Shown here piece by piece: positions 2,023-49,845 of a stretch of 52,976 nt of DNA (position 1 is its first letter; every line of letters starts with the position of its first letter). The position numbers were made by a program, and so were the translations under genes. The stretch is from a phage: the sequence record PZ049337.1, one strand, 5' to 3'. A model generated the notes under the pieces. It did not search any database. It saw only the letters and a program-made list of their open reading frames with translations, and had not been told where the DNA came from.

Positions 2023-2295
2023 TTAATCAACTTGCAACATTGCAAGCTGGAAGTCATATCCAACTAATACTTCGGACAGCTCTTCAATTGAAGTCGTTGC
2101 CGAGATTAAAGTTTGGAGGTTTTTGAATGTCTCATCGTTAAATGCTTGAGACTGTGTGTCGGACGAATAGAATACTTTGTCCTTAATCTTTTCAAGGAAC
2201 GCCATTACGGCGTCTTTTGCGAGAACTTCGGAATCAGTAGCAAACATATGATGCTCTAACTCCTGCATATCGAAAATAGAATATACAATTTTCAT
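2023..2295 (-). CDS. hypothetical protein (90 aa)
   Basis: Minus-strand ORF packed between DNA polymerase and the 288-aa gene; no recognisable motif. Confidence 0.45.
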   Translation of the reverse strand: MKIVYSIFDMQELEHHMFATDSEVLAKDAVMAFLEKIKDKVFYSSDTQSQAFNDETFKNLQTLISATTSIEELSEVLVGYDFQLAMLQVD

Positions 2296-7863: not shown

Positions 7864-7961
7864 GCCCATTGATTTGGTGGATTCGGTGAACCCTACGTTC
7901 ACAATTACACAGTCGGCCTCGGATGCTTCATCCCTATCCCATCGTGCAGGTTTCATTAACT

Positions 7962-8964: not shown

Positions 8965-8972
8965 GAATCACC

Positions 8973-9113: not shown

Positions 9114-9140
9114 GAGGACTCCATGTTATTGTTGAAAGTG

Positions 9141-10732: not shown

Positions 10733-10810
10733 TTGTATATACCTTATATTGAATAGTTTTTGCACGCCACGGTGACGCGACTTAGATAAAATTAAAGAGC
10801 CTTTCTCTTT

Positions 10811-10827
10811 CCACATCCAATTAATGT
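10811..10827 (-). promoter_or_regulatory. copy of recurring 17-nt motif (minus strand ACATTAATTGGATGTGG)
   Basis: About 80 nt upstream of ATG 10732. Confidence 0.35.
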
Positions 10828-10856
10828 GTCAGGACTGCTCTGATTTAACAAACAAC

Positions 10857-11531
10857 TCAATACATATTGAATCGTTCGATTGTTTTGATTACCAAATCCT
10901 TTGTCTCAGCGACAGTGAGTTCAGTGATGATTGATTCGTCATAACCCTCAATCTGGATTGCTACAAAACGCCCAACACCTGTTACGGTAAGTCGGTTGGT
11001 TCTGTCACGAACAACTACACCAGCTTCTTGCGCGACTGCTCGCAACAATTTCCAGCGTAAAGTTCGGTTTGGTACAGTAAAGCCCTTTGTCAAGAACAAC
11101 TCTTTCATGAGTTCTCCAAGGCAAACAGCTTCAATGTTTTTTCCTCTTCCAACTAATTCTTGCAACAGGCACAGCGTCAACATTTCTAAATTGTTGAAGT
11201 GACCAGCGCGCTCCAAATTAAAGAACTCTGGAGGAACAGTTGAACGAGATTTAACAGCTTGCTTATATGCACGTTCTTCTTCCTGTGCAGCAAGCATTAG
11301 CATCTCTGGCTTAATGTATTTCATAGCAGAGAAGCCAGCGCGTGTGGCTTTAATTATGCGACAAGCCTCTTTCATCTTGTAGCGTTGCCACTCACCGCGC
11401 TTCGATTCTGGATTAAAATGGACCCACATAATGATAACATCTTCCTTGGCAAGATAGACGGCATCATTATCATTGAGCCATTGCTTGCACGTTGATAGTG
11501 CAATCTCTTTGTCATCATCATGATAAGACAT
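10857..11531 (-). CDS. hypothetical protein (about 224 aa)
   Basis: Track ORF 10857..11588; ATG at 11531 (MSYHDDD...) has AGG Shine-Dalgarno and sits 1 nt after the upstream stop. Confidence 0.45.
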   Translation of the reverse strand: MSYHDDDKEIALSTCKQWLNDNDAVYLAKEDVIIMWVHFNPESKRGEWQRYKMKEACRIIKATRAGFSAMKYIKPEMLMLAAQEEERAYKQAVKSRSTVPPEFFNLERAGHFNNLEMLTLCLLQELVGRGKNIEAVCLGELMKELFLTKGFTVPNRTLRWKLLRAVAQEAGVVVRDRTNRLTVTGVGRFVAIQIEGYDESIITELTVAETKDLVIKTIERFNMY

Positions 11532-11532
11532 T

Positions 11533-11823
11533 TTAGTGGCCTTGTAGGATACGTTTGTTCGCAGTTTCTGCGTCGATTCCCAAATCAACTAATGTAACCA
11601 AGCACTGCGAAATCCGCTCTTGCGCAGCTTTCTCCAGAATTTGGTATTTTTCGTCGTTAACGCCTAACACATTCTTGGCATGAATGAGTGTAGCCATTAG
11701 GCCATGACCCAAAGCAACAGCTTGCATTGCCTGGAGTTCGAAGTTGATTGTGATGCCAGCAAGTTCGTGCTCTTTCTGGATAATCTCAATCAACTCTTCT
11801 TTGGATTTGTCTTGTAAGTTCAA
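11533..11823 (-). CDS. hypothetical protein (96 aa)
   Basis: Minus-strand ORF, 4-nt overlap with the upstream gene. Confidence 0.45.
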   Translation of the reverse strand: MNLQDKSKEELIEIIQKEHELAGITINFELQAMQAVALGHGLMATLIHAKNVLGVNDEKYQILEKAAQERISQCLVTLVDLGIDAETANKRILQGH

Positions 11824-12140
11824 AATGGGACTCCGTAAATTGGTTGGTTAGTTGTCCACTCGCGAGTTGCGATTTGCATGGACTTGTTTGGGCCGTGGTA
11901 GAAGTATTTCTTGACTTCCTCAAGTGTGTATTTAGCACTGCTTTCGAGAATATCTTTGAAAGTGTGCTTCCAGAACCCATCTTTCTCCGAAATTCCTACG
12001 GTAAAGTCGTTGGTGCCGTTGTACCACCAACGTCCACCAACCAGGACGAAGTGGATTGTTTCTTCCCCATCTTCCCCACTTAGAACAGACGTTAGTACAT
12101 TTCTTAATGTCAAAACTTTAGCAGAATGCTTGCGAATCAT
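11820..12140 (-). CDS. hypothetical protein (106 aa) ending ...GVPF
   Basis: ATG at 12140 with GGAGAG Shine-Dalgarno; C-terminal VPF tip. Confidence 0.5.
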   Translation of the reverse strand: MIRKHSAKVLTLRNVLTSVLSGEDGEETIHFVLVGGRWWYNGTNDFTVGISEKDGFWKHTFKDILESSAKYTLEEVKKYFYHGPNKSMQIATREWTTNQPIYGVPF

Positions 12141-12783
12141 AGGAACTCTCCAATTTTCGATTCAGTGTTTGTGACTTCTCTCTTCTCATCTTTTGGCCTC
12201 ATGAAACAGGCCACAGGGTTGCGAAAATAGCCCTATTTTAGGACTATAGCCAACCGTTTGTGTCAATTCTGGATAACTGCATTGGTGAAGGGTTACTCTC
12301 GTTAGGGTGCGATACGCTAATCACATGAGTGTCGTCGCCTTGCGGCTCAGGCGTGTCACAAAGGCTTTGCAACCCTTCCCAATACATTCACCCAAATCCC
12401 AGCGTTGGCGTAGCTGGTGGCTTGGTTTTGTGCGGATTATGCCACTCTAAGCCCTGTTTGTCCGACTTCCTCGGAGCACCAGCGGCTTGTGGCACAAACC
12501 TATTTTCGAATGACTAACATAAGCATGAGGCACAACCCTCTAATTATTCAGCCCTAACAGCTTGCTTATTTAGTACCAATTCATCCCAATACATCGACCT
12601 ATAACAAGTGAATAGCGTTTCTGCGAAGAAGTATTCTGGCCCTTTGGCCTATGTTAAAAGATAAGTGTATTTGATGGAAACATTCCATCGAAAATAACTT
12701 TGTAGAATGAGTCGAACATTCTCACACGTCTAGCGGCCGCAACGGTCTACCGAGTTACAAAGTTATTATCTGATGTTGTTTCT

Positions 12784-12800
12784 TCAATTCCAACTAATGT
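12784..12800 (-). promoter_or_regulatory. copy of recurring 17-nt motif (minus strand ACATTAGTTGGAATTGA)
   Basis: In ORF-free region 12150-13010. Confidence 0.3.
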
Positions 12801-12864
12801 TTCAGAATTATTCCAATATTCCAAACAAAAAGAATAATAAGAATAAATTAAAATAAATGAAGAA

Positions 12865-12900
12865 AGTGCTTGACACCCATTTGGCGATAAGTGTATAATG
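12865..12900 (+). promoter_or_regulatory. sigma70-type promoter on the plus (antisense) strand
   Basis: TTGACA (12870-12875), 18-nt spacer ending TG, TATAAT (12894-12899): consensus -35, extended -10; points opposite to all genes. Confidence 0.4.
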
Positions 12901-12924
12901 CATTTCTTCCCTAAGAGGTCAGAA

Positions 12925-12941
12925 TCAAATCCCACTAATGC
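12925..12941 (-). promoter_or_regulatory. copy of recurring motif, degenerate (minus strand GCATTAGTGGGATTTGA)
   Basis: Adjacent to hairpin 12949-12995. Confidence 0.25.
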
Positions 12942-13011
12942 TTCAGACGAAGTGCCGAAGGCCAATGCGAGTACAAAACCCGCTTGGCACTTCGAAGAAA
13001 CCCGCCTGGAA

Positions 13012-13248
13012 CTATAGTGCTTTCCAATCTGAATCAAACAGTTTCTTTGGTCTTGAATAAATTATCGAATTAATTCCCAAGAAAGTATGATTTCCATACT
13101 TCTTAACTTCCTGGTAAGCAAAACCATCTACCCAATCTCCGGAGTGGGTTTTAATCTTTGTAGCAAACAGGATTCGATAGTAGTGGCCGCGTGGCTGGTG
13201 GAAGAGTATATCTTCTGGCTTGATTGAGCTAATATTTAAATCACGCAT
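13012..13248 (-). CDS. hypothetical protein (78 aa)
   Basis: Minus-strand ORF, tightly packed early-gene block. Confidence 0.4.
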   Translation of the reverse strand: MRDLNISSIKPEDILFHQPRGHYYRILFATKIKTHSGDWVDGFAYQEVKKYGNHTFLGINSIIYSRPKKLFDSDWKAL

Positions 13249-13789
13249 TTAAGAACAATACTCCTTCGGAGAAGATGTAGTCGCTTCCATAATCTTTTGC
13301 AACTGCATCCCAATCAATGTATGGACGAAGATGGTCTGGAACTTCTATCCCATCATAGTTTTTGAAGTAGTCTGCAATTGAGTCGCAACGAGTGATGAAC
13401 ATGTCATTCAAATCATTCACAGTGAAAATATCAATCTCACCACTACGGAATGCAGCAAGAATTACAAACAAATCAGTGTCATTTAAAAGTTCATTGAATT
13501 TGTCATACTTGCGTAGGCTGAACAGGCCATCAACAAAGCAAACTTCCGTAACATCCTCATCTCTTGATTCGAGAATGTCGTAAGTCCCTGTTTCTGGGTA
13601 CTCGATACCATATTCTTCGTGTAAATATTCTGACATGTTGAAGTCATAGAGCCGCCACGCCAGACCATCAATCCAAGCATCTTCATGCTCGGAATTGTTT
13701 TCGCCTGTGTAGAAACGAACCAATAAGGTTTCATCTCTACGCCAGGACTTAAGCTGTGATACTGCTTGAGTAATGTTATCGTTTTGCAT
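13241..13789 (-). CDS. ArdA-like antirestriction protein (DNA mimic)
   Basis: 182 aa, strongly acidic; C-terminal PYIDWDAVAKDYGSDYIFSEGVLF resembles my recollection of the ArdA C-terminal motif (YIDYQAYGRDL...GIFEI). Confidence 0.45.
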   Translation of the reverse strand: MQNDNITQAVSQLKSWRRDETLLVRFYTGENNSEHEDAWIDGLAWRLYDFNMSEYLHEEYGIEYPETGTYDILESRDEDVTEVCFVDGLFSLRKYDKFNELLNDTDLFVILAAFRSGEIDIFTVNDLNDMFITRCDSIADYFKNYDGIEVPDHLRPYIDWDAVAKDYGSDYIFSEGVLFLNA

Positions 13790-14066
13790 TTAGTTTCTCC
13801 CAAGTGCCTCTCAATTCTGTGTCCAGAATCTTAAGTTGATTGATTCGCTCATTTCCACCTTTGATAAGTGCACTGAGGATAGCAACCTTCTCGTTGTAAC
13901 TGACAGTGTAGACTACATCGTCAAGTTCCATAGTGTACTGCATCTTCTTTTCATCACCTACGTTAATTGATAGGTGCTGGTGGAGAATATTCTCTGCACG
14001 GATGGTTCTTGACTCTAGTGCATTCAACTCTCTTGGAATATCTTCGTAATTCATCGGATGCTCCAT
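13776..14066 (-). CDS. hypothetical protein (96 aa)
   Basis: Minus-strand ORF. Confidence 0.4.
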   Translation of the reverse strand: MEHPMNYEDIPRELNALESRTIRAENILHQHLSINVGDEKKMQYTMELDDVVYTVSYNEKVAILSALIKGGNERINQLKILDTELRGTWEKLNAKR

Positions 14067-14074
14067 TGATGAAG

Positions 14075-14470
14075 TTATGCTGGAAGTTCGAAGTGTGGTG
14101 CGTCTAGGAATTTAGCCCATTTCACCGGCTTAGTGAATGAACGCTCCCATGTTCCGCCCCAACGAATGACAATTCCAAGCTCTTCTGCGGCTTTGAACAT
14201 GTGTTCAGCTACAATTTGGAATCGTTCGAGGTCATTCCAGTCAATTGGATATGGTGCAATGTCCAAAGCGTTGCCTGACATGTGTCGGCTAACTGAAACT
14301 TTGGTTGCACCCTGTTTTAACAGCTCTTGTTGACGTTCATAAGAGCGTAAACCTTCCAAAACAGTTACATCAAAAGGCATGGTTTCACATGCCCGTTTGA
14401 AAACTGCAACTAATGAAGGATTTACTCCCTTAAGTCGGTCTAAAGAACGCTGACCGAGCTTAACATTCAT
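14075..14470 (-). CDS. peptidoglycan L-alanyl-D-glutamate peptidase, M15 family (T5-type endolysin)
   Basis: 131 aa; SRHMSGNALDIAPY...IDWNDLERF...ELGIVIRWGGTW...DAPHFE gives the H-x6-D...H zinc-binding pattern; no signal peptide. Confidence 0.7.
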   Translation of the reverse strand: MNVKLGQRSLDRLKGVNPSLVAVFKRACETMPFDVTVLEGLRSYERQQELLKQGATKVSVSRHMSGNALDIAPYPIDWNDLERFQIVAEHMFKAAEELGIVIRWGGTWERSFTKPVKWAKFLDAPHFELPA

Positions 14471-14745
14471 TATTTACCCTTTAATGCGTCGTTTAAGGTG
14501 TTGTTTAACAACGTGTTGAGGTTATTAAGCTCGTCAAATGCTACCTGAGCTTTGTTAACTTCGTCAACAAGCAATGCCCGAAGGACTGCATGCTCAACAA
14601 GCACCCATCCGTCGATACAGTCGATGAAAACTTTGACTTTATCAACTGGAGCGTTTAAATCAAAGGCTGACAAGTCGGATTTGGCATTGTCCAACTTACC
14701 TTTTGCCTTGCTTAGTTCAACTGGAACTTGGTCTATCGAAATCAT
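14470..14745 (-). CDS. hypothetical protein (91 aa)
   Basis: Minus-strand ORF. Confidence 0.4.
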   Translation of the reverse strand: MISIDQVPVELSKAKGKLDNAKSDLSAFDLNAPVDKVKVFIDCIDGWVLVEHAVLRALLVDEVNKAQVAFDELNNLNTLLNNTLNDALKGK

Positions 14746-14975
14746 TGAAATTTATTCCCACTAGGGTGAATGGTTAATTTGAAAGGCACTAATTCTTTAT
14801 TGATTGAGGTTGTTCCAAGAACTGTTGCCTCAAACAGCATAGATTTAGCTGTTTCCTTACCAACACGTTCCAAGTATTTTACAACTCGGTCGTGAATTAC
14901 TGCCCAATGGCGATATTCGCAATCGGATTCCAGCAGGTATTGAACTCCATCAATGATAAATTCGGTTGAAGTCAT
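14742..14975 (-). CDS. hypothetical protein (77 aa)
   Basis: Minus-strand ORF. Confidence 0.4.
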   Translation of the reverse strand: MTSTEFIIDGVQYLLESDCEYRHWAVIHDRVVKYLERVGKETAKSMLFEATVLGTTSINKELVPFKLTIHPSGNKFQ

Positions 14976-15331
14976 TTCTTCTCCGTACAGCTGGTGGATA
15001 AAACAGGATAGTTTGCTTTGAGGAAATCTCCATCACGGAAAATCTGAAGTACAAGTTTGTCTTCATGATTTATAAACAGTGCAGCAAACCTGCTATCTTT
15101 AATGTTGTAAAACAAAACTGTTGCAGGATTTGGTTCATCGCTTGGAACCTCCATCCAAACACCAGCTTCAGGAATTATTGACGCAATCAGAGGTTGGCTG
15201 TCTCCAATATTATCAATTACAAGAGCATACGCTCCGCATTTGAAGTTCTTTGTTGACGCTTTGGACTCAAAGCTGAAGAACGCCAAAACAATTAATGCTA
15301 AAGTATAAATGATGATGTACTTAAGTTTCAT
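14972..15331 (-). CDS. secreted/periplasmic hypothetical protein
   Basis: N-terminal signal-peptide-like MKLKYIIIYTLALIVLAFFSFESKAS. Confidence 0.45.
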   Translation of the reverse strand: MKLKYIIIYTLALIVLAFFSFESKASTKNFKCGAYALVIDNIGDSQPLIASIIPEAGVWMEVPSDEPNPATVLFYNIKDSRFAALFINHEDKLVLQIFRDGDFLKANYPVLSTSCTEKK

Positions 15332-15383
15332 AATTCCTCCAATAATTAATCGAGGCCACTCGAAGTGGAATGGCCTCTGTTAA

Positions 15384-16088
15384 TTACAGCTTCTTGATAA
15401 GCTCTGCGGATTTGCTTGCAGCAACTTTCATTTCATCGCGTGCGGCTTTGGTGATTGATGCCTTATCCACGCGAATGTTACAGTTGCCGATTGCAATCTT
15501 GCCATCTTCTGTTGGTGCAAGTTGCTGTAAGTCGAGCATTTGCTCCAGCTTTTGCAGAAGAATACGTTGTGCTTCGATTGCATTTTGAATATTTAAAGTT
15601 TCCATTACTGCTCTTACCTTTCTTGAATAAGTTTCAAATAATGATAGGCGCACTTGCAAACCTTTTACGCCATCACAGTCAAAATTGACTTTGTTGAATG
15701 GTGAATTTGGATGCTTATATACATTTGTAACAGTTTTCCAATTACCCTTATGCAAGATAACATCACCAACTTCCACATCAGCGCCTTTAACATCCTCTTC
15801 ATCTGAGAATGGTTTCACTGCTTCACCATAAGGGAGAAACACTGGTGTTATCTGTGTGCTGAATGTCGCTGTTGGAGTCCCCAAAGCTGGTGGCCTGTCG
15901 AGCACTTTGACTATGCGGCCAAATTCAAAATTGTAGTACCCACCAGAATATTGCAACTGAACTGCATCACTAAACCGGAGGATGTTTTCAATCCGGTATT
16001 CCCTGTTGCCGTAAACCAATACATCACCAGGCTTTACCAAATTGGCAGGTATTTCGACAAATTTAGTTCCCATTATGGTATTCCTCAC
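15384..16088 (-). CDS. hypothetical protein (about 230 aa)
   Basis: Largest early-region ORF; no motif recognised. Confidence 0.45.
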   Translation of the reverse strand: MRNTIMGTKFVEIPANLVKPGDVLVYGNREYRIENILRFSDAVQLQYSGGYYNFEFGRIVKVLDRPPALGTPTATFSTQITPVFLPYGEAVKPFSDEEDVKGADVEVGDVILHKGNWKTVTNVYKHPNSPFNKVNFDCDGVKGLQVRLSLFETYSRKVRAVMETLNIQNAIEAQRILLQKLEQMLDLQQLAPTEDGKIAIGNCNIRVDKASITKAARDEMKVAASKSAELIKKL

Positions 16089-16197
16089 GCATTGCTGAAC
16101 AGTGCTTACACACCCAAAAGGTTACATAATCGTTTTCATGTGAAATTTCCCAATTATGTAGCCCTATAAAACATAAAATTTTCATAGGGCATCCCAA

Positions 16198-16551
16198 TTA
16201 GAATGGAATATCGTCGTCGAAGTCTTTCGGCTCGTTCGGATTGTAATTGCTCTGCTGTTGCTGAGCAGAAGGTTGCTGACGTTGCTGTCGCTGTTGAGCA
16301 GCGGCTTGAGGTTGAGCTTTGGCTTTAGCTTTCTCTTCACGCTTACGCATCATTTCATCAACCTGTTCTTGGGTCATGATGGTCAATGCAAGTGAGGTAA
16401 ATTCATTACCATTTGCTTGCTTGTTCCAGCCAGATACCCAATACCAGATTCCGTCAACGTTAATACGTCCACGAACGTCGGGATGTTTTGGGTCTTTCTT
16501 GAAGCCATTGGAACCGATGATGCCAGTGTTTACGTCTGAATATTGTGCCAT
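16198..16551 (-). CDS. small protein carrying a host-SSB-like C-terminal tip (DFDDDIPF)
   Basis: 117 aa; ATG at 16551 with Shine-Dalgarno; Gln/Ala-rich linker then NEPKDFDDDIPF, matching the E. coli SSB tip as I recall it; N-terminal domain about 70 aa, too short for a canonical OB fold. Confidence 0.55.
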   Translation of the reverse strand: MAQYSDVNTGIIGSNGFKKDPKHPDVRGRINVDGIWYWVSGWNKQANGNEFTSLALTIMTQEQVDEMMRKREEKAKAKAQPQAAAQQRQQRQQPSAQQQQSNYNPNEPKDFDDDIPF

Positions 16552-16623
16552 GATTAAGATTCTCTTAAGTTAATTACAGTTTAAGTTTCAGTGACATTGC
16601 TAACCACGGAATAGCTTTGTCTC

Positions 16624-16640
16624 TCACATCCAACTAATGT
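16624..16640 (-). promoter_or_regulatory. copy of recurring 17-nt motif (minus strand ACATTAGTTGGATGTGA)
   Basis: 73 nt upstream of ATG 16551; identical 17-mer at 20704-20720. Confidence 0.4.
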
Positions 16641-16680
16641 TGAATTAATCAGGAACACTCAATGAATGCTCCTTGTTAAT

Positions 16681-16968
16681 TTACATCGACTTGGAAATAG
16701 GAATCGGGTCAATGTTTGATTCAGGTTTATACCAGCTTACTTCACCAGAATCTTTCACAAGCTCCCACAAATTGGAGAATGTACGATAGAGTAGAACTTT
16801 GTTATCATCAATAACGACAAAACCCAAAGGAGATTGAATATACGCACCCAATGTACCACTGTTTCGAGGAACTCCGTCACCACGACCTGCGACGATTTTG
16901 TACTTCTTGCCTTTGGTGAAGCTGGAATTAGTTTCACCAACATATTTAACGATTGAATTCTTGTTCAT
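16681..16968 (-). CDS. hypothetical protein (95 aa)
   Basis: Minus-strand ORF. Confidence 0.4.
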   Translation of the reverse strand: MNKNSIVKYVGETNSSFTKGKKYKIVAGRGDGVPRNSGTLGAYIQSPLGFVVIDDNKVLLYRTFSNLWELVKDSGEVSWYKPESNIDPIPISKSM

Positions 16969-17198
16969 TGCTTTAGTTTCTCCAAAGCGGATAATACGGA
17001 ATCACCAGAACCACTAATTACAAGCGTTTCCCCTGGAAGATTGTAGGATATATAAGAGAACGTCCATTTTACAACAGTTCTCTGATATGAGGAGCTGTAT
17101 TTATCAGACAGCTCTATATCTTGCCTTGCATCGTTTAGTAAGAACTCCTGCCCATCAATAGTCAGTTGCTTAAACATTTCGATATGACTCTTACCCAC
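16965..17198 (-). CDS. hypothetical protein (77 aa)
   Basis: Minus-strand ORF. Confidence 0.4.
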   Translation of the reverse strand: MGKSHIEMFKQLTIDGQEFLLNDARQDIELSDKYSSSYQRTVVKWTFSYISYNLPGETLVISGSGDSVLSALEKLKQ

Positions 17199-17481
17199 GC
17201 TTCACCTTCTCCCATTTAGATAAACCACCCTCAAGACTGAATACGCGGTTACAACCAGATTCATCTTTAATGACGAATTGAGTTCCGGTTAACTGAACTG
17301 GCTCAAGTGCACCAAACAACACTTTAGGTTTTGACAAGCTGGTGGCAAGAACTTTGTATGCTTTGCTTGGGCAAATGTCAAAAGCAAAGTCACGAGTGTA
17401 AACTAAGTCACCAACCTTCAAATATGCTGGTAACAAGCGACCTGTGGCTGGGTCACGTTGTAAACGAGTACGTTGTTTCAT
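17191..17481 (-). CDS. hypothetical protein (96 aa)
   Basis: Minus-strand ORF. Confidence 0.4.
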   Translation of the reverse strand: MKQRTRLQRDPATGRLLPAYLKVGDLVYTRDFAFDICPSKAYKVLATSLSKPKVLFGALEPVQLTGTQFVIKDESGCNRVFSLEGGLSKWEKVKRG

Positions 17482-17544
17482 AAATGCTCCAAGTTAATTA
17501 ATAATATTCAGCAACCACTCTCATTATGAGAATGGTTGAGGAAA

Positions 17545-17796
17545 TTATTTAACTTCTTCCCAGGACCAGACACTGCCTTTTAGCGGAACGCTTTCACCAG
17601 CATTCCAGTAAGGTTTTCCATCAACATCCTTGTGGTCACTATCTTTCAAAAGGTTTATGCGAGCTTCCACACCGTATTCTCGCTGAACATGTACAAGTTC
17701 TCCCTCAAGCACGACACCAACCTGCGGAGAATACTCCCCAGAAGATGTTGATTTTACACATTTAAACTTTGTCATTGTAATACACCTTGTTCGCAA
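17545..17796 (-). CDS. hypothetical protein (83 aa), tandem paralog of 17772..17999
   Basis: Shares N-terminal M(T)KFKCV.S...VG...EGE.V pattern with the neighbour. Confidence 0.4.
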   Translation of the reverse strand: MRTRCITMTKFKCVKSTSSGEYSPQVGVVLEGELVHVQREYGVEARINLLKDSDHKDVDGKPYWNAGESVPLKGSVWSWEEVK

Positions 17797-17999
17797 ATAT
17801 CTGCAAACTCTGCACGATGGTCACGCTGCCATGTCCAGAATGCACCATTCATAGGAACAACAGCGCCTTTACGAAATGCTGGAGAAATACTCTCAGCAGA
17901 TTTGGTAACTTTAAATTCTAAAGGTGAAACAGCTTCACCCTCGATGATTAGGCCAACTGGGACGTAGTCTTTGTTGGAAGCAACACATTTAAATTTCAT
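17772..17999 (-). CDS. hypothetical protein (75 aa), tandem paralog of 17545..17796
   Basis: MKFKCVASNKDYVPVGLIIEGEAV... Confidence 0.4.
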   Translation of the reverse strand: MKFKCVASNKDYVPVGLIIEGEAVSPLEFKVTKSAESISPAFRKGAVVPMNGAFWTWQRDHRAEFADICEQGVLQ

Positions 18000-18001
18000 G
18001 G

Positions 18002-18184
18002 TTATCCTCTTGGTGGAATATTTCCACTATTATCTATAAGTTTACCGCGATAAATATTTAAACCACAATCTGCACAGAATGCGTTATCCAGAACTACGGG
18101 ACCATACATTCCCACAGCTTCATGAGCCACATGGTCTACATTATTGCTGCCACACTTTGGGCAAACAACATCATCCTCATTCAT
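18002..18184 (-). CDS. zinc-ribbon small protein
   Basis: CPKCGS...CADCG double CxxC. Confidence 0.4.
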   Translation of the reverse strand: MNEDDVVCPKCGSNNVDHVAHEAVGMYGPVVLDNAFCADCGLNIYRGKLIDNSGNIPPRG

Positions 18185-18488
18185 GGTATAAAACTCCCAA
18201 TTCAGATTCTAATTTAAATTCACGGAAGAAATCCATTGTTACAAATCGGACTTTACCTTCGTCATCAACTACGTTACAGGAAATGTCGGAGTGGACCATC
18301 CTGCCTAGCTTCAGAGCAACTTCTGAAAGATTCGCTTCGCCAGTCCCTGAGATTACACGGTAGATGCGATACGGTGTAAAGCCGCTTAAAGAGTTATTAC
18401 GGCTTGGGACAATCATCATGCCTGTTCTAGTAGCCATAATAACTCCAATATTAAAAGTACATGAATGCGCCAATAGTAAGTAGCACAA
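18177..18488 (-). CDS. hypothetical protein (103 aa)
   Basis: Minus-strand ORF. Confidence 0.4.
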   Translation of the reverse strand: MCYLLLAHSCTFNIGVIMATRTGMMIVPSRNNSLSGFTPYRIYRVISGTGEANLSEVALKLGRMVHSDISCNVVDDEGKVRFVTMDFFREFKLESELGVLYHE

Positions 18489-18709
18489 GTGGAAACATCA
18501 GAATGCAGAATACTAATTTCTTAACAATGTCCATTATTTCACCAGGAAGTAGAGAACAATAGCAACACCAACACATGCAATGATTGTTGGCATATAATTA
18601 TCAATTTTACGATATTGACGTTCGACTGGCTTCTTGCCTTTAATAGCATCCATCAATTCTTGATGATTAATCTGCTGCATGAATGTGTTAAATTGCTGGT
18701 CGTTCATTA

Positions 18710-18958
18710 TCACATACCTTTGTAGGACATAAAGTTGTTAATCAAACTGTCCATGATTCGGTCAGTCATAACATCTTTATTGAATTGTCTTTTTGTGATT
18801 TCGATGCCGAAATCGTTTTTAACTTCCTTAACTACATCACTTACTGGAAGGTGTATCCAATTATTAAAGTTGACAACAAGACGCTCCTGGATGAACTCAA
18901 TCTTTTCTTCATAAGAGGCCAACTCGATTAAGTCAGCCTTCAATTTAAACTGTGTCAT
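18710..18958 (-). CDS. hypothetical protein (82 aa)
   Basis: Minus-strand ORF. Confidence 0.4.
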   Translation of the reverse strand: MTQFKLKADLIELASYEEKIEFIQERLVVNFNNWIHLPVSDVVKEVKNDFGIEITKRQFNKDVMTDRIMDSLINNFMSYKGM

Positions 18959-19143
18959 TTAGCCTCCAGAATTTGGCTTAATGAACTGAACACGATTTCC
19001 TCATGTTCATCAGGTGTACATGCGTTGATGTATTCAAAGTCATACCCAACAAACTTCTCCGCCCACTCCTGTAAACGAAGTAAAGAATTGAAGTACAAAC
19101 GTTGCTCTACGCCATTTAACTTAAAGTAGACGATGAAGTCCAT
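18955..19143 (-). CDS. hypothetical protein (62 aa)
   Basis: Minus-strand ORF. Confidence 0.35.
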   Translation of the reverse strand: MDFIVYFKLNGVEQRLYFNSLLRLQEWAEKFVGYDFEYINACTPDEHEEIVFSSLSQILEAK

Positions 19144-19145
19144 GA

Positions 19146-19448
19146 TTAACCTCTTACTTTCAGGAAATCTGGATGTGCGGCAGTTGCCACAACTTTGTGA
19201 TGTTTGTCATTCTGGATTGCTTGCCAAACATATTCAGGATATGCGGCATTATTCCACACCAGCTTGTTTTCGTAAATTGATGTATAAGATATTAAGTCTG
19301 CCAACATTATTGCTCTGGTTTTAGTATTAACCAAAGCATGAGAAACAACACCATCACGATTGATATATTGATACAGTGCGTAATCCATTTCAGAATCCTT
19401 TAGTGTACCCAACAGTTTTGCGCAGAATGATTTCATCATTTGAATCAT
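19146..19448 (-). CDS. hypothetical protein (100 aa)
   Basis: Minus-strand ORF. Confidence 0.4.
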   Translation of the reverse strand: MIQMMKSFCAKLLGTLKDSEMDYALYQYINRDGVVSHALVNTKTRAIMLADLISYTSIYENKLVWNNAAYPEYVWQAIQNDKHHKVVATAAHPDFLKVRG

Positions 19449-19638
19449 CTGGCTCTAATTCGATTTCAATATTGACAACAATATTGTCACTAAAAGTACA
19501 TGCCTTACTTGAATCAAAGAACTTTACAGCATTATACTTATCTGACTCATTTACTTTAACCCACTTCACAGAACGAACAGTAAAGATTTGTCCATCTTGC
19601 AGGTCTTTAAAGTAAGCCGCTTTAGTAACAGTATCCAT
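19390..19638 (-). CDS. hypothetical protein (82 aa), first gene after the 1.1-kb repeat region
   Basis: Minus-strand ORF; start may be downstream of the listed one. Confidence 0.4.
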   Translation of the reverse strand: MDTVTKAAYFKDLQDGQIFTVRSVKWVKVNESDKYNAVKFFDSSKACTFSDNIVVNIEIELEPDDSNDEIILRKTVGYTKGF

Positions 19639-19832
19639 TTTATTCTCCTAAGTTAAAAGAAAACTCCCGTCATAACGATTGTGGAGGTCTTGTGTTACCT
19701 TAATCCACCTTAAAGAATCAGGGAGTATGTGACACAACAAGTGCCGAAAACTACAATGATTAGCTTGGAGACATAATCTCTCTAAAATCTGTCACACAAT
19801 TTCAGCAGAATTTACAGAGATTTGGTCTTATT

Positions 19833-19849
19833 CACATGCAACTAATGAT
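19833..19849 (-). promoter_or_regulatory. copy of recurring motif (minus strand TCATTAGTTGCATGTGA)
   Basis: 195 nt upstream of gene start 19638. Confidence 0.3.
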
Positions 19850-20039
19850 AAATGAACATGCTTAATTGCAACCAATTCATCTGCCAAATAGACGAATTTA
19901 GTCACAATCAAACATGCATCATTAATTACAGGTTTACTCCCACCTTGAATGTATTTGGCACATTAAGATTGGAGCAAGCAGGTACGGAAAACCGACCATG
20001 TACAGCATAATAAAACTAATTAAATAAAGGGTTTTATCC

Positions 20040-20312
20040 CAATATTGTCACAATATTTACATGCGATGATAAAGCCTTCGCTTGGCTGGAAGCCAGTATT
20101 CATGCGGGTTGCAAGAATATTGGGTGAATATTGATACATTTATTACATGCGAAATTGGCACAAATATTGTTACAAAATTAACATGCCGGATTGGTAGACA
20201 ATTGTATCTTCGAGGTGATTAGTCCTCTAACAATTCTGCCACATTCTAACATGCCAATTTGTAGCAATATTTACATGCCATACTGTGACGCAATTGTCAC
20301 AATATTTGTTGC
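20040..20312. repeat. iteron-like array of about 25-nt direct repeats (AATATTGnnACAnnATTTACATGC)
   Basis: Copies at 20040-20065, 20126-20151, 20162-20187, 20231-20255, 20256-20279, partial 20291-20312; further isolated ACATGC boxes across 19835-20660. Confidence 0.55.
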
Positions 20313-20703
20313 TCAAAATCGGGGCGGGCTACGGGATTAGTTTCGCGGCTTTGCTCCGACTCTTCTCTTCTTTCGAATTCTGATTGAAAGAAAGAAGCAT
20401 GTCCAAAAGTTCCAATATTACCAAAGTTATCTCCCGGCTTGTGGGTGGGCCTTTATAATAGGAGATGTGGCTCAATTGTCGCTAATAGACATGCTATAGG
20501 TGAAGAACAGTTTCGAATAATATTCCTACTTCACACATGGTTGCTGGAACTTTGTCCGGCCAAAGACAGGGAGTTCAATGATTGCCACATCATTACAACA
20601 CTGTATGTTTAGTTGACATGCTGAAATGTTTCTAGAATGATTTCAACATGACATGCGGAAACCCACGAACAACGTGAGTAATACTTCTCCGTATTCTGTT
20701 ACT

Positions 20704-20720
20704 TCACATCCAACTAATGT
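20704..20720 (-). promoter_or_regulatory. copy of recurring 17-nt motif (identical to 16624-16640)
   Basis: Exact 17-mer TCACATCCAACTAATGT on plus strand. Confidence 0.35.
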
Positions 20721-20794
20721 TACAGATGGCTACAATATTGAAGCCAGCTCTAAGATTAATTGAAACAAGAAAAGGGAGCCGAAGCTCCCAAATA

Positions 20795-21031
20795 TCAGAA
20801 CGGTATCTCTGTATCAAAGTATCCAGAATTGTGTAAGAATGCGTGCAATAATACATGCGACTCTTGTTTATATTCTGCTAACAACTCTAAGAAGTCTTTA
20901 GTCTCATTCACTGTGGGACGAGATAAGTTGCTCATGTCACAGGTGTGGTGAGGATTGAAACAGTTTTCGATTTGATTGATTTGTTGAGTATTCATTGTAG
21001 TCTCCAATTTGTTATAGTCATCCTTGACCAA
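20795..21031 (-). CDS. hypothetical protein (78 aa) ending ...FDTEIPF
   Basis: Immediately downstream of the RNA polymerase gene; SSB-tip-like C-terminus. Confidence 0.45.
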   Translation of the reverse strand: MVKDDYNKLETTMNTQQINQIENCFNPHHTCDMSNLSRPTVNETKDFLELLAEYKQESHVLLHAFLHNSGYFDTEIPF

Positions 21032-21041
21032 TTAATCCTAA

Positions 21042-22982
21042 TTATTGACAGAAGTAGTAAGCGTGTTCGCTCATCAGAAGCTCTTCAGTTACGATATTCT
21101 CATGATACATCTGAATGCCACCGAGTTGCTTAGACAGATTCTCGAATTGATTGTTGGTTACGAAGATTTCAACATATGCTGCACGAATAACTTCCATCAT
21201 ACGTGGAGCATCAGCTAAGCAGCAACGGAAACAGTCATGGATTGAAGTGAAACCACGAAGACCAGCTTCTTTAGCCTTAACTGCAACAGTACGAGCAACC
21301 AACGCGTCAATACCTTGAATGTAGTTAACAACGAAGGTACGCTTGAACTCTTCTTTAGTTGGGTTGGACTCACGAATGGTCCAAGGCTTATTCTCCTGAA
21401 TCTGACCAAAGATAACACGAGTTTGAGAGTCAACACGAATGCTGAATGCCTCACAGATTTCACGAGATGGGAAGCAAGGCTTCATTACAACCTGACCATC
21501 AGTGTGCTTATAGGTGATGTACTCTTTGTTGAGTTCAACACAACGAGCAAATGCAGCATCAGCAGCTTTCTCAATGAACATGTTAATCTTAGCACCCAAT
21601 GCGTTATGGATTGCTTCTACACACAGTTCAGCAAATGCCTCAGCTTTCTCCATAGGAATCTGAAGAGATGCAGTCATGTAGGAGATAAAGTCAGAAGAAC
21701 CAGTTAATGCTGCTTTACCACCACCATATTGGATAGCCATGTATGGAGTTTTGATAAACTTACGACCAGCTTTCGGATTCAAGAATTCATCCATAATTTC
21801 AGGAGATGGTTTCATTGAAGAACGGTCTAATAACTTTAACAGTTCACGAAGAGATAACTGGTATGGGTCAGATGCTTTAGTCTCAGAATCAACCAGACCT
21901 GTTGCACGAGCCATCTCCATGTTACCAGCAATGAATGCCAGATATTGAGTACCAGAACATTTAGCATCTAAGCCAAAGCCTACACGAGAATCACACTCAC
22001 CTGTAGTCTCAAACTTGAACCAATCCAGAGCCAGACGAACATAAGTGAATGGCTTAGAAGGACGTTCAGCTTTAGGCATGTTCATCATGCGAGCAAGTGA
22101 ACCAGCTGGATTCTGAGCAACATAGGTCAAACGTTTAGCACTGCACCATTCACCACCAGAAATATCTTCCAGCTCAGCCATGAACATGTTGTATGCAATG
22201 GTAGTAGAACCATCTTCGTTAAACTTCTTAACGATGTTCTCAACATTGTGAGAATACAGGCAACGAGCAAAGTCAGATGATTGTGGGTTAGGACCAGCAC
22301 ATGCTACATGATACAGGCGACCACGGTTATCAGCAAAGTAGTCAGAATAGAGTGTATCCTGAGTCATCATTGCTACAGCATTGTTCCAAACATGGAGTTC
22401 AGTCTGGATTGCTTCTGGCATCTGCAAACCACCGTAGGTACGTTGTTCAATCATGGACTGAATGATGCGAACCATTTCAGTCTCCACATGGTACTCAGTA
22501 TCTTGCAGGAATTCGATTGCAGCTTTCAGAGTCTTGGATGGCTTAACTTTGCCACCTTTAACGAAAGGCTTGCGACGAGATTCAGATGTAACACGCTCAG
22601 TGAATGGCACTGCTGTGTCTTTGGTTGTAACCAGCTCAACCCATGTATCAGTTTGTTGGAATGACTTGTCTTCGTTCATGGTGATGAAGCCAAAGTGTTT
22701 AGCTAAACCAATGAGGTTGATAGCTGGGTCAACATAGTGCATTGATTTCAAGTCGTTGTTATAGCGGTTGGCATCAGCAATAGAAGAAGAAGCCAGTTCA
22801 ACCATTGCAATGGCTGGGACAACATCATCACGAGTGAATGACGTCATCATCTTGAAGATTGCAAGAGCAGCAATAGCACAGGTCTGAGGCTGCATATAGT
22901 TCTGTTTCTCTTTGGCACGATATACCAGAGCCGTGATAGCAGGGACAACGGATTTGATAGTTTGAGTGGTGATAGTAGTCAT
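21042..22982 (-). CDS. single-subunit DNA-directed RNA polymerase (T7-like), N-terminally short (646 aa)
   Basis: DNRGRLYHV...NPQ matches T7 DWRGRVYAV...NPQ; CSGTQY versus T7 CSGIQH; motif B RKFIKTPYMAIQYG (R-x3-K-x3-M-x3-YG); motif C IHDCF; GGAG Shine-Dalgarno before ATG 22982. T7 comparisons are from memory. Confidence 0.8.
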   Translation of the reverse strand: MTTITTQTIKSVVPAITALVYRAKEKQNYMQPQTCAIAALAIFKMMTSFTRDDVVPAIAMVELASSSIADANRYNNDLKSMHYVDPAINLIGLAKHFGFITMNEDKSFQQTDTWVELVTTKDTAVPFTERVTSESRRKPFVKGGKVKPSKTLKAAIEFLQDTEYHVETEMVRIIQSMIEQRTYGGLQMPEAIQTELHVWNNAVAMMTQDTLYSDYFADNRGRLYHVACAGPNPQSSDFARCLYSHNVENIVKKFNEDGSTTIAYNMFMAELEDISGGEWCSAKRLTYVAQNPAGSLARMMNMPKAERPSKPFTYVRLALDWFKFETTGECDSRVGFGLDAKCSGTQYLAFIAGNMEMARATGLVDSETKASDPYQLSLRELLKLLDRSSMKPSPEIMDEFLNPKAGRKFIKTPYMAIQYGGGKAALTGSSDFISYMTASLQIPMEKAEAFAELCVEAIHNALGAKINMFIEKAADAAFARCVELNKEYITYKHTDGQVVMKPCFPSREICEAFSIRVDSQTRVIFGQIQENKPWTIRESNPTKEEFKRTFVVNYIQGIDALVARTVAVKAKEAGLRGFTSIHDCFRCCLADAPRMMEVIRAAYVEIFVTNNQFENLSKQLGGIQMYHENIVTEELLMSEHAYYFCQ

Positions 22983-23049
22983 TTGTAAGTCTCCAAGATT
23001 GTGTATGATTTAACTGAAACGGATTATAATAGCGTAGCCATTACACAAT

Positions 23050-23066
23050 TCACTTCCAACTAATAT
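23050..23066 (-). promoter_or_regulatory. copy of recurring 17-nt motif (minus strand ATATTAGTTGGAAGTGA)
   Basis: 68 nt upstream of the RNA polymerase ATG; a TATAAT-like hexamer lies about 25 nt downstream of it. Confidence 0.35.
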
Positions 23067-23170
23067 CACAAACCTGTGCCATTGTTAGCACAGCACGGAG
23101 ACTTTGACCTTGACTCATAAGCGAAGCGCCTAACTTGGTGTTATCATTAAGCCGATAGGCTGTAGAAAAA

Positions 23171-23229
23171 GTTGGGGTAGGGACCGTATTTTAAGTCCGA
23201 TAGGACGTTGGGCTTCCCCTCCCCGCGAC
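23171..23229 (-). terminator. possible intrinsic terminator after the late/nrdB transcription unit
   Basis: Minus strand GGGGAGGGG...CCCTACCCC stem (one mismatch, one G-U) followed by AACTTTTTC; loop is long, so uncertain. Confidence 0.3.
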
Positions 23230-23242
23230 CTCAAAAATAAAA

Positions 23243-23470
23243 ATTAATATTGCCACAATTCGAGTCTCATTAATATTGAAACAATTTGAGTCTCATTAAT
23301 TTTGTAGCAATATTAAAATAAAAAAAAATTATAAAAAAAAAATTATTTCATAGTCAGACAACTGTTCGAAAAAATTTCGGCGAGATACAGCTGACCGACC
23401 ATGTACCATTTGGTTTTGAACTTTACGCATTCCTAATATTACTCTTAATATTGTAGCAATATTGGGAATA
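23243..23470. repeat. AT-rich repeat region (24-nt direct repeat, A-tracts, TGTAGCAATATT boxes)
   Basis: CACAATTCGAGTCTCATTAATATT (23254-23277) and AACAATTTGAGTCTCATTAATTTT (23280-23303); poly-A runs 23318-23345; TGTAGCAATATT at 23298 and 23452, related to the 20040-20312 array. Confidence 0.5.
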
Positions 23471-23552: not shown

Positions 23553-24671
23553 TTAAAGCTCAAATCCGCCCAGAGCATTGGTGTCAACTTCGGAGTCAAT
23601 CTGCCCGACAAGGTACGAACTAATCTCCGTTTCTTGTGGAGCAACCTGTACAGCATCCGAGTTCAGCCATGCGTTAATCCAAGGAATCGGGTTAGTTGCA
23701 CCTTTGAATGGGGCATCTAATCCAACTGCTTGCATACGAATATTCGTAATATATTCCACATATCCGCACAGAATTTGCTTGTTTAAGCCAATCATGGAGC
23801 CATCTTTGAACAAATAATCGGCCCAATCTTTCTCTTGTTGGGCAGCATCTTCGAACAATTTCTGGCATTCTTCACGACATTCTTGAGCAATTTCTCCCAT
23901 TTCTGGGTCATCTTTACCACTCGCAAGAATATTCAACATGTGCTGAGTTCCGGTCAAATGGAGTGCTTCATCTCGTGCAATCAGTCGAATAATCTTGGCA
24001 TTTCCTTCCATTAACTTGCGTTCAGCGAAGGCAAATGAGCAAGCAAAACTAACATAAAAGCGGATTGCTTCTAGTGCATTGATAGACATGAGGCATAAAT
24101 AGAGCTTCTTCTTCAACTCACGCAGACTAATTTCGTGACCAGCATGGTTCCCTTCTCCGAACAACTGCCATAATGCAGTGAGTTGTTGAAGTTCGTCATA
24201 ATACTGGGAGATGCCAATTGCTCGTGCTTTGATATGTTCGTTAGTTACGATTTCATCAAAGATAATGCTTGGGTCTGTAACGATGTTTCGAATAATGTGG
24301 GTGTAAGAACGTGAATGGATAGTCTCAGAGAAAGACCAAGTTTCAATCCAAGTTTCAAGCTCAGGAATGCTCACGATTGGAAGCAAAACTGTGTTAGGTC
24401 CACGTCCCTGAATGGAGTCCAGAAGGATTTGATAGCGCAAATTACTGGTGAAAATGTGCTGCTCATTTGGTGGGAGCTTCTGGTAATCAATACGGTCTTG
24501 TGAAACATCTACCTCCTCCGGTCGCCAGAAGAATGACAATTGTTTCTCAATCAACTTCTCGAATATGCCATACTTCTGTTGGTCATAGCGAGCAACGTTG
24601 ACGTTCTGACCAAAGAACATTGGTTCTAATAGTTGGTTATTCTTGGTTTGTGAAAAGGTAGTGTAAGACAT
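23553..24671 (-). CDS. nrdB: ribonucleotide reductase class Ia small subunit
   Basis: 372 aa; N-terminus [34 protein letters not shown]... closely resembles E. coli NrdB as I recall it; [17 protein letters not shown] (radical Tyr) and RDEALH iron ligands present. Confidence 0.9.
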
Positions 24672-35332: not shown

Positions 35333-35346
35333 CTATTGAAATTAAT

Positions 35347-35363
35347 ACATGTTCAACTAATAT
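35347..35363 (-). promoter_or_regulatory. copy of recurring motif, degenerate (minus strand ATATTAGTTGAACATGT)
   Basis: 15 nt upstream of gene start 35332, just after a hairpin. Confidence 0.3.
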
Positions 35364-35367
35364 TAAA

Positions 35368-49640: not shown

Positions 49641-49659
49641 TGATTCGTTCTCTTTGTTT

Positions 49660-49845
49660 TTAATCACAATCCACTAATGGCTGAGTTTGCACAGGATTGA
49701 TGCGAATGATGTTGCCCAAACTAGAATCAGCTTTTAAAATCAGTCGATTTAGTGGCATGAATGAATCACAGATAGGACATTGTTGGGTGATGAAATCATC
49801 CTCTGCCACCTCATAATGGCAGTTAGGACATTGTATTGTGCGCAT
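49660..49845 (-). CDS. zinc-ribbon small protein
   Basis: CPNCH...CPICD double CxxC; directly upstream of terminase. Confidence 0.4.
   Translation of the reverse strand: MRTIQCPNCHYEVAEDDFITQQCPICDSFMPLNRLILKADSSLGNIIRINPVQTQPLVDCD
49664..49680 (-). promoter_or_regulatory. copy of recurring motif (minus strand CCATTAGTGGATTGTGA)
   Basis: 24 nt upstream of terminase ATG 49640. Confidence 0.3.

Follow-up and report, generated by a model that had tools for sequence, protein, structure and literature searches.

The mosaic of a T7-like RNA polymerase (RNAP) and a myovirus is reportedly named in the title of the founding paper on phage phiEcoM-GJ1 (GJ1), which dates from 2008. Myovirus virions together with a T7-like RNAP are the defining trait of the family Chaseviridae, whose double-stranded DNA genomes comprise 52-56 kb with a G+C content of 39.3-52.5% (2022 profile of the virus taxonomy committee ICTV, PMC12842549). 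A second described system of comparable kind is RNAPII of phage N4, an enzyme of 673 amino acids (aa) with a truncated thumb and N-terminal domain, which needs gp1 and gp2 (single-stranded DNA-binding) and whose middle promoter is short and AT-rich, reaching from -7 to +2 (PMC4496689). Here, the complete genome of a phage (sequence record PZ049337.1; 52,976 bp, in the following termed the window) was analyzed, in which an open reading frame (ORF) at positions 21042..22982 of the minus strand codes, with an ATG start, for a full-length single-subunit RNAP of 646 aa. This gene is probably the phage's own transcriptase, a complete and compact RNAP of the T7 type acting at promoters with the core CATTAGTTGGATGTGAA. 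We assign this reading, which builds on the observed fold, catalytic motifs, conserved length, motif statistics, strand bias and synteny, a probability of roughly 80%.

Assignment of the phage

Judged by its sequence, the window is a GJ1-like phage of the genus Carltongylesvirus, family Chaseviridae. Its first 25 kb are 90-92% identical in nucleotides (nt), over 81-87%, to MLP1, EcoM1, GJ1 and Mangalitsa, and its gene order is collinear with that of GJ1. The RNAP gene is 95.6% identical to that of Escherichia virus TH53 at the nt level, with 51 phage records covering at least 80% of the gene, and at the protein level 98% identity is shared with annotated RNAPs, among them those of ST32 and SKA49. 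T7-like genes for replication (family A DNA polymerase, Toprim-DnaB primase/helicase) were found along with contractile-tail genes (sheath-like DUF3383, Baseplate_J) and genes for portal and capsid. Genome size and G+C content (~0.37-0.51 in 2-kb windows, mean ~0.44), a single-subunit RNAP accompanied by contractile-tail genes, an own DNA polymerase and primase/helicase as well as the nt identity all agree with the Chaseviridae.

A preliminary description of this DNA had noted the RNAP beside contractile-tail genes and called the combination an uncommon mosaic. The mixture of genes is indeed real and uncommon, but in the literature it already serves as the hallmark of an established family. 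Because the Chaseviridae are defined by myovirus virions with a T7-like RNAP, a trait described for GJ1 in 2008, the combination of a compact RNAP and a myovirus is already known and does not constitute a new kind of system.

A compact RNA polymerase of the T7 type

By every catalytic and structural feature examined, the protein is a member of the T7-like superfamily of single-subunit RNAPs. Pfam RNA_pol (PF00940) matches residues 323-621 with 65.7 bits (cut-off 22), and PHROG 414 ('RNA polymerase') matches with E = 8e-97, positions 154-816 of the 816 profile positions being aligned; the first ~150 positions of this profile have no counterpart in the 646 aa. In an alignment of 39 homologous sequences, D218-R222, D339, R407/K411/Y419/G420 and H582-D583 are invariant, which align to D421-R425, D537, R627/K631/Y639/G640 and H811-D812 of T7 RNAP. 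The invariant residues and the PF00940 match bear out the T7-like catalytic motifs from DxRGR onwards that had been recognized before, and the earlier count proved exact: 217 residues precede DNRGR (D218-R222), compared to 420 in front of DWRGR (421-425) in T7 RNAP. The structural model shows the pol-A-type right-hand fold of solved single-subunit RNAPs. Its predicted strands 506-537 align to T7 739-770, the beta-hairpin of the specificity loop in the fingers, whose sequence is conserved inside the subfamily and divergent between subfamilies. Comparisons with known polymerases gave the following pairs of figures, reproduced as tabulated (mtRNAP, mitochondrial RNAP; vRNAP, virion RNAP):

Yeast mtRNAP: 28.4; 476
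T7 RNAP: 26.8; 505 of 646
Human mtRNAP: 24.2; 480
N4 mini-vRNAP: 20.7; 467
N4 RNAPII large subunit (gp16): 13.7; 300
N4 RNAPII small subunit (gp15): 5.6; 145

Both in sequence and in structure, the RNAP of the window is nearer to the T7 and mitochondrial enzymes than to N4 RNAPII. No paper was found that analyzes the reduced N-terminal domain of a Chaseviridae RNAP or assays the activity of the enzyme.

The N-terminal domain is reduced rather than absent

Codons 1-216 encode a module that is predicted to be well folded (predicted local distance difference test (pLDDT) ~85-95) and is conserved across the family:

22335..22982, minus strand: N-terminal module and short thumb; helices 6-27, 32-46, 57-74 and 87-96, beta-hairpin 100-110, helices 150-205

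Residues 1-216 contain a TxYHV motif followed by three more helices and, at 136-150, the conserved stretch RRKPFVKGGKVKPSK with the nearly invariant pattern RRxxxVKGGKVKPSK. The Pfam domain RPOL_N (PF14700), which is recognized in T7 RNAP with E = 1.2e-34, gave no match at E <= 1 for the RNAP of the window, nor at E <= 0.1 for five members of its clade; precomputed Pfam domains of the homologues comprise PF00940 only. In phmmer and hmmsearch runs against the PDB, alignments of the RNAP began only at about residue 165-193, leaving the T7 N-terminal domain undetected by sequence. In a profile-profile alignment to a T7-family profile, residues 3-643 are collinear with T7 68-883 (E = 1.2e-12), residues 1-216 corresponding to T7 68-411.

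Read literally, this alignment leaves T7 residues 1-67 without a counterpart and most of T7 148-213 (subdomain H) unmatched. A gap of nine residues falls exactly on T7 93-101 (KAKRGKRPT, the AT-rich recognition loop), where the model has a turn of four residues (E = 0.083 for the N-terminal part alone). The beta-hairpin 100-110 stands at the place of the T7 intercalating hairpin and is nine residues shorter; at its tip (residues 102-107), the sequence MNEDKS is polar and varies within the family, the T7 tip lying around V237. Approximately 40 thumb residues are missing in comparison with T7 in the profile alignment as well as in a HMMER alignment. In T7, the promoter possesses an AT-rich upstream element at -13 to -17 which is read by the AT-rich recognition loop, while subdomain H is refolded by the polymerase to build the RNA exit tunnel. 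The N-terminal domain of the compact enzyme is reduced rather than absent. Compared to T7, residues 1-67, the AT-rich recognition loop, subdomain H and about half of the thumb appear to be missing, the residue mapping being based on a weak alignment.

The view of the preliminary description that most of the promoter-melting N-terminal domain is absent is right in that the protein is ~200 residues shorter there and lacks RPOL_N, but it is overstated with regard to the conserved, folded module of residues 1-216. A domain that is present but diverged, the finding which had been named as speaking against this view, was encountered by half: there is a reduced collinear module from which several T7 elements seem to be missing.

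The short form is conserved within a small clade

A search among 5.8 billion proteins yielded 119 homologues, most of which have 630-660 aa, including those with 35% identity. The length is also kept in 96 of the 109 matching phage records, covering at least 80% of the RNAP protein. When the RNAP was compared by tblastn to 50,697 phage records, matches were found solely in Chaseviridae-type genomes (109 records), and residues 1-216 as phmmer query retrieved only 13 proteins among 1.84 billion cluster representatives, the full-length ones comprising 646-693 aa. The short N-terminus is a stable trait of a small, well-separated clade.

The short length alone, together with the longer annotation of some relatives (704 aa in Mangalitsa, 845 aa in Aeromonas phage ZPAH14), might suggest that a normal RNAP of ~880 aa has been truncated or mis-assembled here, or that the ORF is a decaying pseudogene. 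Truncation by sequencing or assembly, which had been raised earlier as an objection, is ruled out because in-frame stop codons occur within 10 codons upstream of the ATG and because most of the 119 homologues share the length of 630-660 aa. Moreover, the predicted structure is confident from residue 6 on and the catalytic residues are all invariant; the probability of a damaged gene is negligible.

A longer true N-terminus was considered as well. In Mangalitsa, an ORF of 58 codons (211-384) with its own Shine-Dalgarno-like site (TTGGAGACTTATC ATG) reads in frame into the RNAP gene, resulting in 704 aa. This upstream ORF is also present in some other close relatives, its protein cluster has 271 members, and the homologous region of the window contains stop codons. 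Since the 58 extra residues are unrelated to any RNAP, this candidate was rejected. The RNAP coding sequence of ZPAH14 (79-2616) is annotated with 845 aa, the homology to the family beginning at about residue 160. Its Met126 is preceded by a GAGGAG-like site and would give ~720 aa; the RNAP of Vibrio phage VPs20 has 718 aa. The start of the ZPAH14 gene is probably annotated too far upstream, and with Met126 as the likely start and no T7-like similarity in the N-terminal part, this candidate was also rejected.

A strand-specific motif as putative promoter

The 17-nt motif CATTAGTTGGATGTGAA occurs eight times in the window with at most three mismatches, where 0.19 copies are expected, and every copy is on the coding strand; the long ORFs of the window all lie on the minus strand. 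In a de novo search for repeated 18-mers, it emerged as the top family in the window, in Erwinia phage Y2, in Proteus phage Myduc and in Pectobacterium phage PP101. A position weight matrix built from four genomes was used to scan five genomes of four genera (PP101 with 26 kb). Hits on the coding and the other strand numbered 13 and 0 in the window, 12 and 0 in GJ1, 11 and 0 in Y2, 11 and 1 in Myduc and 9 and 0 in PP101, altogether 56 versus 1, while shuffles gave <0.5. The GenBank entry for phiEcoM-GJ1 labels nine of these sites 'putative phage promoter 1-9'. Syntenic sites lie upstream of the RNAP ATG, ~250-320 bp past the RNAP stop codon, in front of the first early cluster and in front of the gene for a single-stranded DNA-binding protein (SSB); weaker syntenic versions precede the terminase and baseplate genes. 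The sites in the window are:

23049..23065, minus strand: copy TATTAGTTGGAAGTGAA, ending 67 nt before the RNAP ATG (26.2 bits)
20703..20719, minus strand: perfect copy CATTAGTTGGATGTGAA, ~320 bp past the RNAP stop codon (32.4 bits, best site in the window)
19831..19847, minus strand: copy ~190 bp before the first early-gene cluster
16623..16639, minus strand: copy immediately in front of the SSB gene (27.7 bits), with syntenic copies in GJ1, Y2, PP101 and Myduc
12924..12940, minus strand: copy of the motif
12783..12799, minus strand: copy of the motif
10810..10826, minus strand: copy of the motif
2053..2069, minus strand: copy near the end of the DNA polymerase region
49659..49681, minus strand: weaker motif-like site (17.5 bits), shortly before the large terminase gene
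35342..35364, minus strand: weaker motif-like site before the baseplate genes, corresponding to GJ1 'putative phage promoter 9'

The copy upstream of the RNAP ATG is also present in GJ1, Myduc and PP101 and degenerate in Y2, and copies syntenic to 20703..20719 exist in GJ1, Y2, Myduc and PP101. Weak sites syntenic to 49659..49681 were detected in GJ1 (26982) and Myduc (26991). From this distribution, the motif is likely to be the promoter of the phage polymerase. High information content is limited to ~17 positions; if transcription starts at the G of GTGAA, the promoter would be conserved from about -12 to +5. A conserved core of only ~17 nt would fit the apparent loss of the AT-rich recognition loop and would be its counterpart on the side of the DNA.

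Myduc differs in both partners: its motif has a genus-specific GA to AG exchange (TTGAGTGTGAA replaces TTGGATGTGAA), and its specificity loop shows a Q-to-A substitution and an insertion of four residues. Simple covariation of loop and motif was not shown, as the loop of Y2 is substituted (Q to T) and yet the motif is unchanged. Distant relatives with another specificity-loop sequence have other, likewise strand-specific repeats, namely the 20-mer CTCGCCCACTAGAAATTGGT with four copies (2473-20997) in VPs20 and a GGCTCTTCGAGCC hairpin followed by AAAAG in ZPAH14 (2764-9190). The ZPAH14 hairpin, GGCTC-TTC-GAGCC, has a 5-bp stem and a 3-nt loop, occurs in at least five copies and recalls the hairpin promoters used by N4 virion RNAP.

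Surroundings of the gene and the predicted terminal repeat

The RNAP gene has nrdB (23553-24671) on one side and a long series of small early ORFs on the other, and a terminator-like hairpin (23093-23074) and a motif copy (23065-23049) precede it. Both the position and the two upstream elements had been correctly described before. The following features were identified around the gene:

20362..23194, no strand: predicted direct terminal repeat, one collapsed copy, by homology to the repeats of Mangalitsa (PhageTerm), Y2 and PM1
23074..23093, minus strand: terminator-like stem-loop of 8 bp, directly upstream of the motif copy 23049..23065
20795..20995, minus strand: ORF of 66 aa right after the RNAP gene, function unassigned (phrog_20790, E = 5e-18), in the terminal repeat
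20774..20789, minus strand: intrinsic terminator GGGAGCTTCGGCTCCC with a T-run behind it, past the small ORF downstream of the RNAP gene

Chaseviridae genomes of the genus Carltongylesvirus are characterized by long direct repeats of about 2.3-3.2 kb at their termini. Direct terminal repeats containing the whole RNAP gene are annotated in Mangalitsa (PhageTerm, 3,234 bp), Myduc (3,202 bp) and 4HA13. The records of Y2 and PM1 hold both repeat copies (2,608 and 2,665 bp, zero mismatches), and for PYps23T a terminal repeat was shown experimentally (PMC8762354). The repeat boundaries of Mangalitsa, Y2 and PM1 are mutually homologous and correspond to positions ~23194 and ~20362 of the window. The RNAP gene is predicted to lie inside a direct terminal repeat of ~2.8 kb that is collapsed in the window. 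Due to this position, the gene, both flanking motif copies, the 66-codon ORF and the terminator would be present twice in virion DNA.

In the record of Yersinia phage PYps23T (MW147598), positions 1, 2339, 52531 and 54869 delimit a repeat of 2,339 bp, and both physical ends fall on the same point within the two motif copies flanking the RNAP gene (…CATTAGTTGGA / [C/T]GTGAA…). Either the ends differ between close relatives, or the junction determined by polymerase chain reaction (PCR) arose from jumping between identical 16-mers. Repeat ends produced at the motif itself, as the record suggests, were judged unlikely, since Y2, PM1 and Mangalitsa agree on other boundaries.

The same deposited ends, both inside motif copies (ATTAGTTGGA^NGTGAA), could mean that the motif is a signal for genome ends or replication instead of a promoter, the polymerase acting mainly at an origin or at the termini. 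It also suits this idea that the copy past the RNAP gene is followed by a non-coding, repeat-rich region of ~1 kb, similar to the T7 primary origin. We regard it as improbable, though: the boundaries of Y2, PM1 and Mangalitsa are elsewhere, the PYps23T junction was obtained by PCR with ligated DNA as template, a procedure in which two identical 16-mers may permit jumping, and about ten further copies, every one on the coding strand, stand before gene blocks throughout the early and middle region, a pattern that fits promoters and not ends.

The non-coding region (19640-20795) extends over ~1.1 kb between the small ORF behind the RNAP gene and the first early gene and has no convincing ORF. It contains 13 of the 35 GCATGT hexamers of the window, 12 of them on the coding strand, as well as two motif copies and palindromes. 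The primary origin of T7 follows gene 1 behind the promoters phi1.1A and phi1.1B; by analogy with this layout, the region is a candidate for a replication origin or a regulatory hub. A near-palindromic 17-mer (AATATTG-NNN-CAATATT) has 19 matches in the window (4.5 expected), which cluster at 23246-23463 and 20041-20306 (also 19480 and 20723), just outside the repeat boundaries at 23194 and ~20362. The downstream copies are longer, reading GCATGTAAATATTGTGACAATATT. In PP101, the palindromes recur at 1, 2451, 2959, 3097 and 3208, while Myduc has weak copies only. The palindromes might serve as operators, as host promoters or as signals for packaging or replication. In the leader (23100-23200), which separates the predicted left genome end from the RNAP gene, blocks are conserved across four genera, namely CCTATCGG-type hairpins, AATACGGTCCC, AGCCTATCGGCT and GGCTACGC. 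In Escherichia phages, the GGCTACGC block and the promoter-like motif stand in the opposite order to that in the Erwinia, Proteus and Pectobacterium phages.

Proposed course of transcription

In the following scheme, promoter function, start site, timing and the dependence on or independence of cofactors are as we infer them. The RNAP gene would be the first gene from the left genome end, lying inside the ~2.8-kb direct terminal repeat, with two copies in virion DNA. Presumably, the first transcripts are made by the host RNA polymerase. The phage RNAP may then initiate at ~10-13 co-oriented promoters with the core CATTAGTTGGATGTGAA, which would precede early and middle gene blocks, weaker versions being placed before terminase and baseplate genes. 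The motif copy in front of the RNAP gene would allow positive feedback. As to the enzyme itself, palm, fingers and the hairpin of the specificity loop are kept, whereas the thumb seems to be halved and the N-terminal promoter-binding domain to be pared to a helical bundle of ~120 residues plus a short beta-hairpin.

Several points weigh against this picture. In hhalign, the N-terminal part alone reached only E = 0.083, so that the residue mapping is of low confidence, and for the isolated N-terminal fragment generic winged-helix domains match as well as T7 RNAP. The promoters of Chaseviridae RNAPs are listed as not identified (ICTV profile 2022, PMC12842549). The ~28-kb structural half has no strong motif copies, for which reason late transcription may rely on read-through, weak sites or host RNAP. 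In addition, a consensus scan from the predicted left end (23194) to the RNAP ATG revealed no convincing sigma-70 promoter for the synthesis of the first RNAP molecules. An AT-rich region with promoter-like sites (23246-23463), including one annotated as host promoter in GJ1, lies just outside the repeat and would precede only the right-hand copy of the RNAP gene or a copy in a concatemer.

Cofactors or autonomy

It is conceivable, if doubtful, that the RNAP is a factor-dependent minimal polymerase like N4 RNAPII, for which an early protein (the SSB or the product of one of the small ORFs) or negative supercoiling would be needed to recruit the enzyme and to melt the promoter. This possibility overlaps with the transcriptase reading preferred here and differs from it only with regard to autonomy. 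With the AT-rich loop, subdomain H and a hydrophobic intercalating tip lost, as proposed, the enzyme could not open duplex DNA alone, and the hairpin tip is polar and variable, unlike the T7 tip. Its 646 aa and the reduced N-terminal domain and thumb agree with what is described for N4 RNAPII, and most T7-like RNAPs are factor-dependent (PMC4496689). Furthermore, a strong motif copy lies directly before the SSB gene in all genera. The SSB is the only nucleic-acid-binding early protein recognized and, speculatively, a cofactor candidate:

16198..16551, minus strand: phage SSB (phrog_7364, E = 8e-42)

On the other hand, tblastn gave no match better than E = 1.8 in the window for N4 gp1 and gp2, a search limited to homologues. 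A comparison of 20 early proteins to PHROGs provided a named function for the SSB and an anti-restriction protein only, and no annotation pertaining to transcription. Likewise, an early protein supplying the N-terminal function, whose existence the preliminary description had proposed to check, was not found as a homologue in tblastn, hidden Markov model (HMM) or PHROG searches. The long, information-rich 17-nt motif suggests direct readout by the polymerase, unlike the short N4 promoter, and T7 RNAP and mtRNAP resemble the enzyme more closely than N4 RNAPII does.

A related proposal, that a separate polypeptide provides the N-terminal function in trans and that the enzyme is split like the gp15/gp16 heterodimer of N4 RNAPII, has a precedent in N4-like phages (PMC4496689), and two unassigned small ORFs are linked to the RNAP gene within the terminal repeat. 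The small ORFs that follow the RNAP gene are not conserved across genera, however, and neither a T7-family N-terminal HMM (residues 1-415) nor N4 gp15 matched any six-frame ORF of the window (all E > 1). As the single chain already includes the counterpart of gp15 (N-terminus, thumb, DxxGR), a split enzyme is very improbable.

The transcriptase could also be autonomous, a minimized single-chain enzyme that recognizes and melts a duplex promoter of ~17 bp without cofactors and then elongates without a large T7-like refolding of the N-terminal part. This tentative proposal would hold despite the lack of the AT-rich loop, subdomain H and half of the thumb, the transition to elongation being of the kind proposed for N4 RNAPII. 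If the RNAP is autonomous, it would be an orthogonal polymerase of 73 kDa with a 17-bp promoter, useful for synthetic biology, and nature would thereby offer a test of how large a part of the T7 N-terminal domain promoter melting and the transition to elongation require. The comparative evidence leads to a concrete promoter hypothesis and to a list of T7 elements that are apparently missing; its lasting value lies in a testable promoter model and a possible autonomous minimal RNA polymerase.

Further observations on the genome and its relatives

The tail protein encoded at 35399-39088 (minus strand, 1,229 aa), which occupies the position of a tape-measure or central-fibre gene, possesses a YqaJ-like viral recombinase/exonuclease domain (residues 458-590) and a C-terminal SLT transglycosylase domain; a nuclease-type domain is unusual in a tail protein. 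An RNAP with 92% identity is encoded by PP952070.1 ('Staphylococcus phage Pel53', host Staphylococcus hyicus), probably because the host was assigned wrongly or the phage is a contaminant.

The family is described as strictly lytic. A homologue of the short RNAP with 52% identity was detected in an integrated element of a Hafnia alvei chromosome (GCA_002206365.2), with the order integrase, holin, cell-wall hydrolase, RNAP and early genes including ArdA. A second one with 38% identity resides in an integrated element of Pseudomonas (SRR28603075), where baseplate/tail genes, lysozyme, RNAP, small early ORFs and integrase are followed by host ahpC/ahpF. Both elements look like temperate relatives.

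Comparison with known polymerases and phages

The mitochondrial enzymes yeast Rpo41 and human POLRMT are much larger than the RNAP of the window and have pentatricopeptide repeat (PPR) and N-terminal extensions. They require Mtf1 or TFB2M/TFAM, respectively, and there is no evidence of such factors in the window. T7 RNAP (PDB 1CEZ, 1QLN, 3E2E) shares 14-16% identity and has 883 aa instead of 646. It carries RPOL_N, which marks the T7/mitochondrial branch and is lacking here; the hairpin at the intercalating position is shorter and polar-tipped in the compact enzyme, whose gene has a promoter-like copy in front of it, is situated in a long terminal repeat and belongs to a family with myovirus virions. 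By contrast, the Autographiviridae, to which T7 belongs, are podoviruses with a short non-contractile tail and an RNAP containing RPOL_N, from which the window is set apart by its sheath and baseplate genes and by the absence of that domain.

N4 RNAPII (gp15 and gp16, PDB 6DT7) falls into the same minimal size class (673 versus 646 aa; PMC4496689), likewise has a truncated N-terminal domain and thumb and is also an early/middle-phase enzyme of a phage that is not T7-like. However, it is a heterodimer split after the DxxGR region, whereas the RNAP of the window is a single uninterrupted ORF. Moreover, it depends on gp1 and gp2, which have no homologue here, and it uses a short promoter in contrast to the long, specific candidate promoter of the compact enzyme. 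The latter resembles N4 RNAPII in size but is not a member of that group.

The closest counterparts are gp01 of phiEcoM-GJ1 and the other Carltongylesvirus RNAPs (ST32, TH53, SKA49, PYps23T), which represent the same gene at the same genome position with 92-98.5% protein identity. The window does not have the upstream extension of 58 codons found in Mangalitsa. ARAGORN detected no tRNA gene in the window, and no Rfam family reached the threshold, while a tRNA-Arg is annotated in phiEcoM-GJ1 and in Myduc; presence and absence of a tRNA is a polymorphism also seen in the Yersinia-phage paper (PMC8762354). With ~91% genome-wide nt identity and the same promoter-like motif copies, nothing of substance separates the window from phiEcoM-GJ1, and it represents a further variant, at the level of isolate or species, of the phiEcoM-GJ1-type phages.

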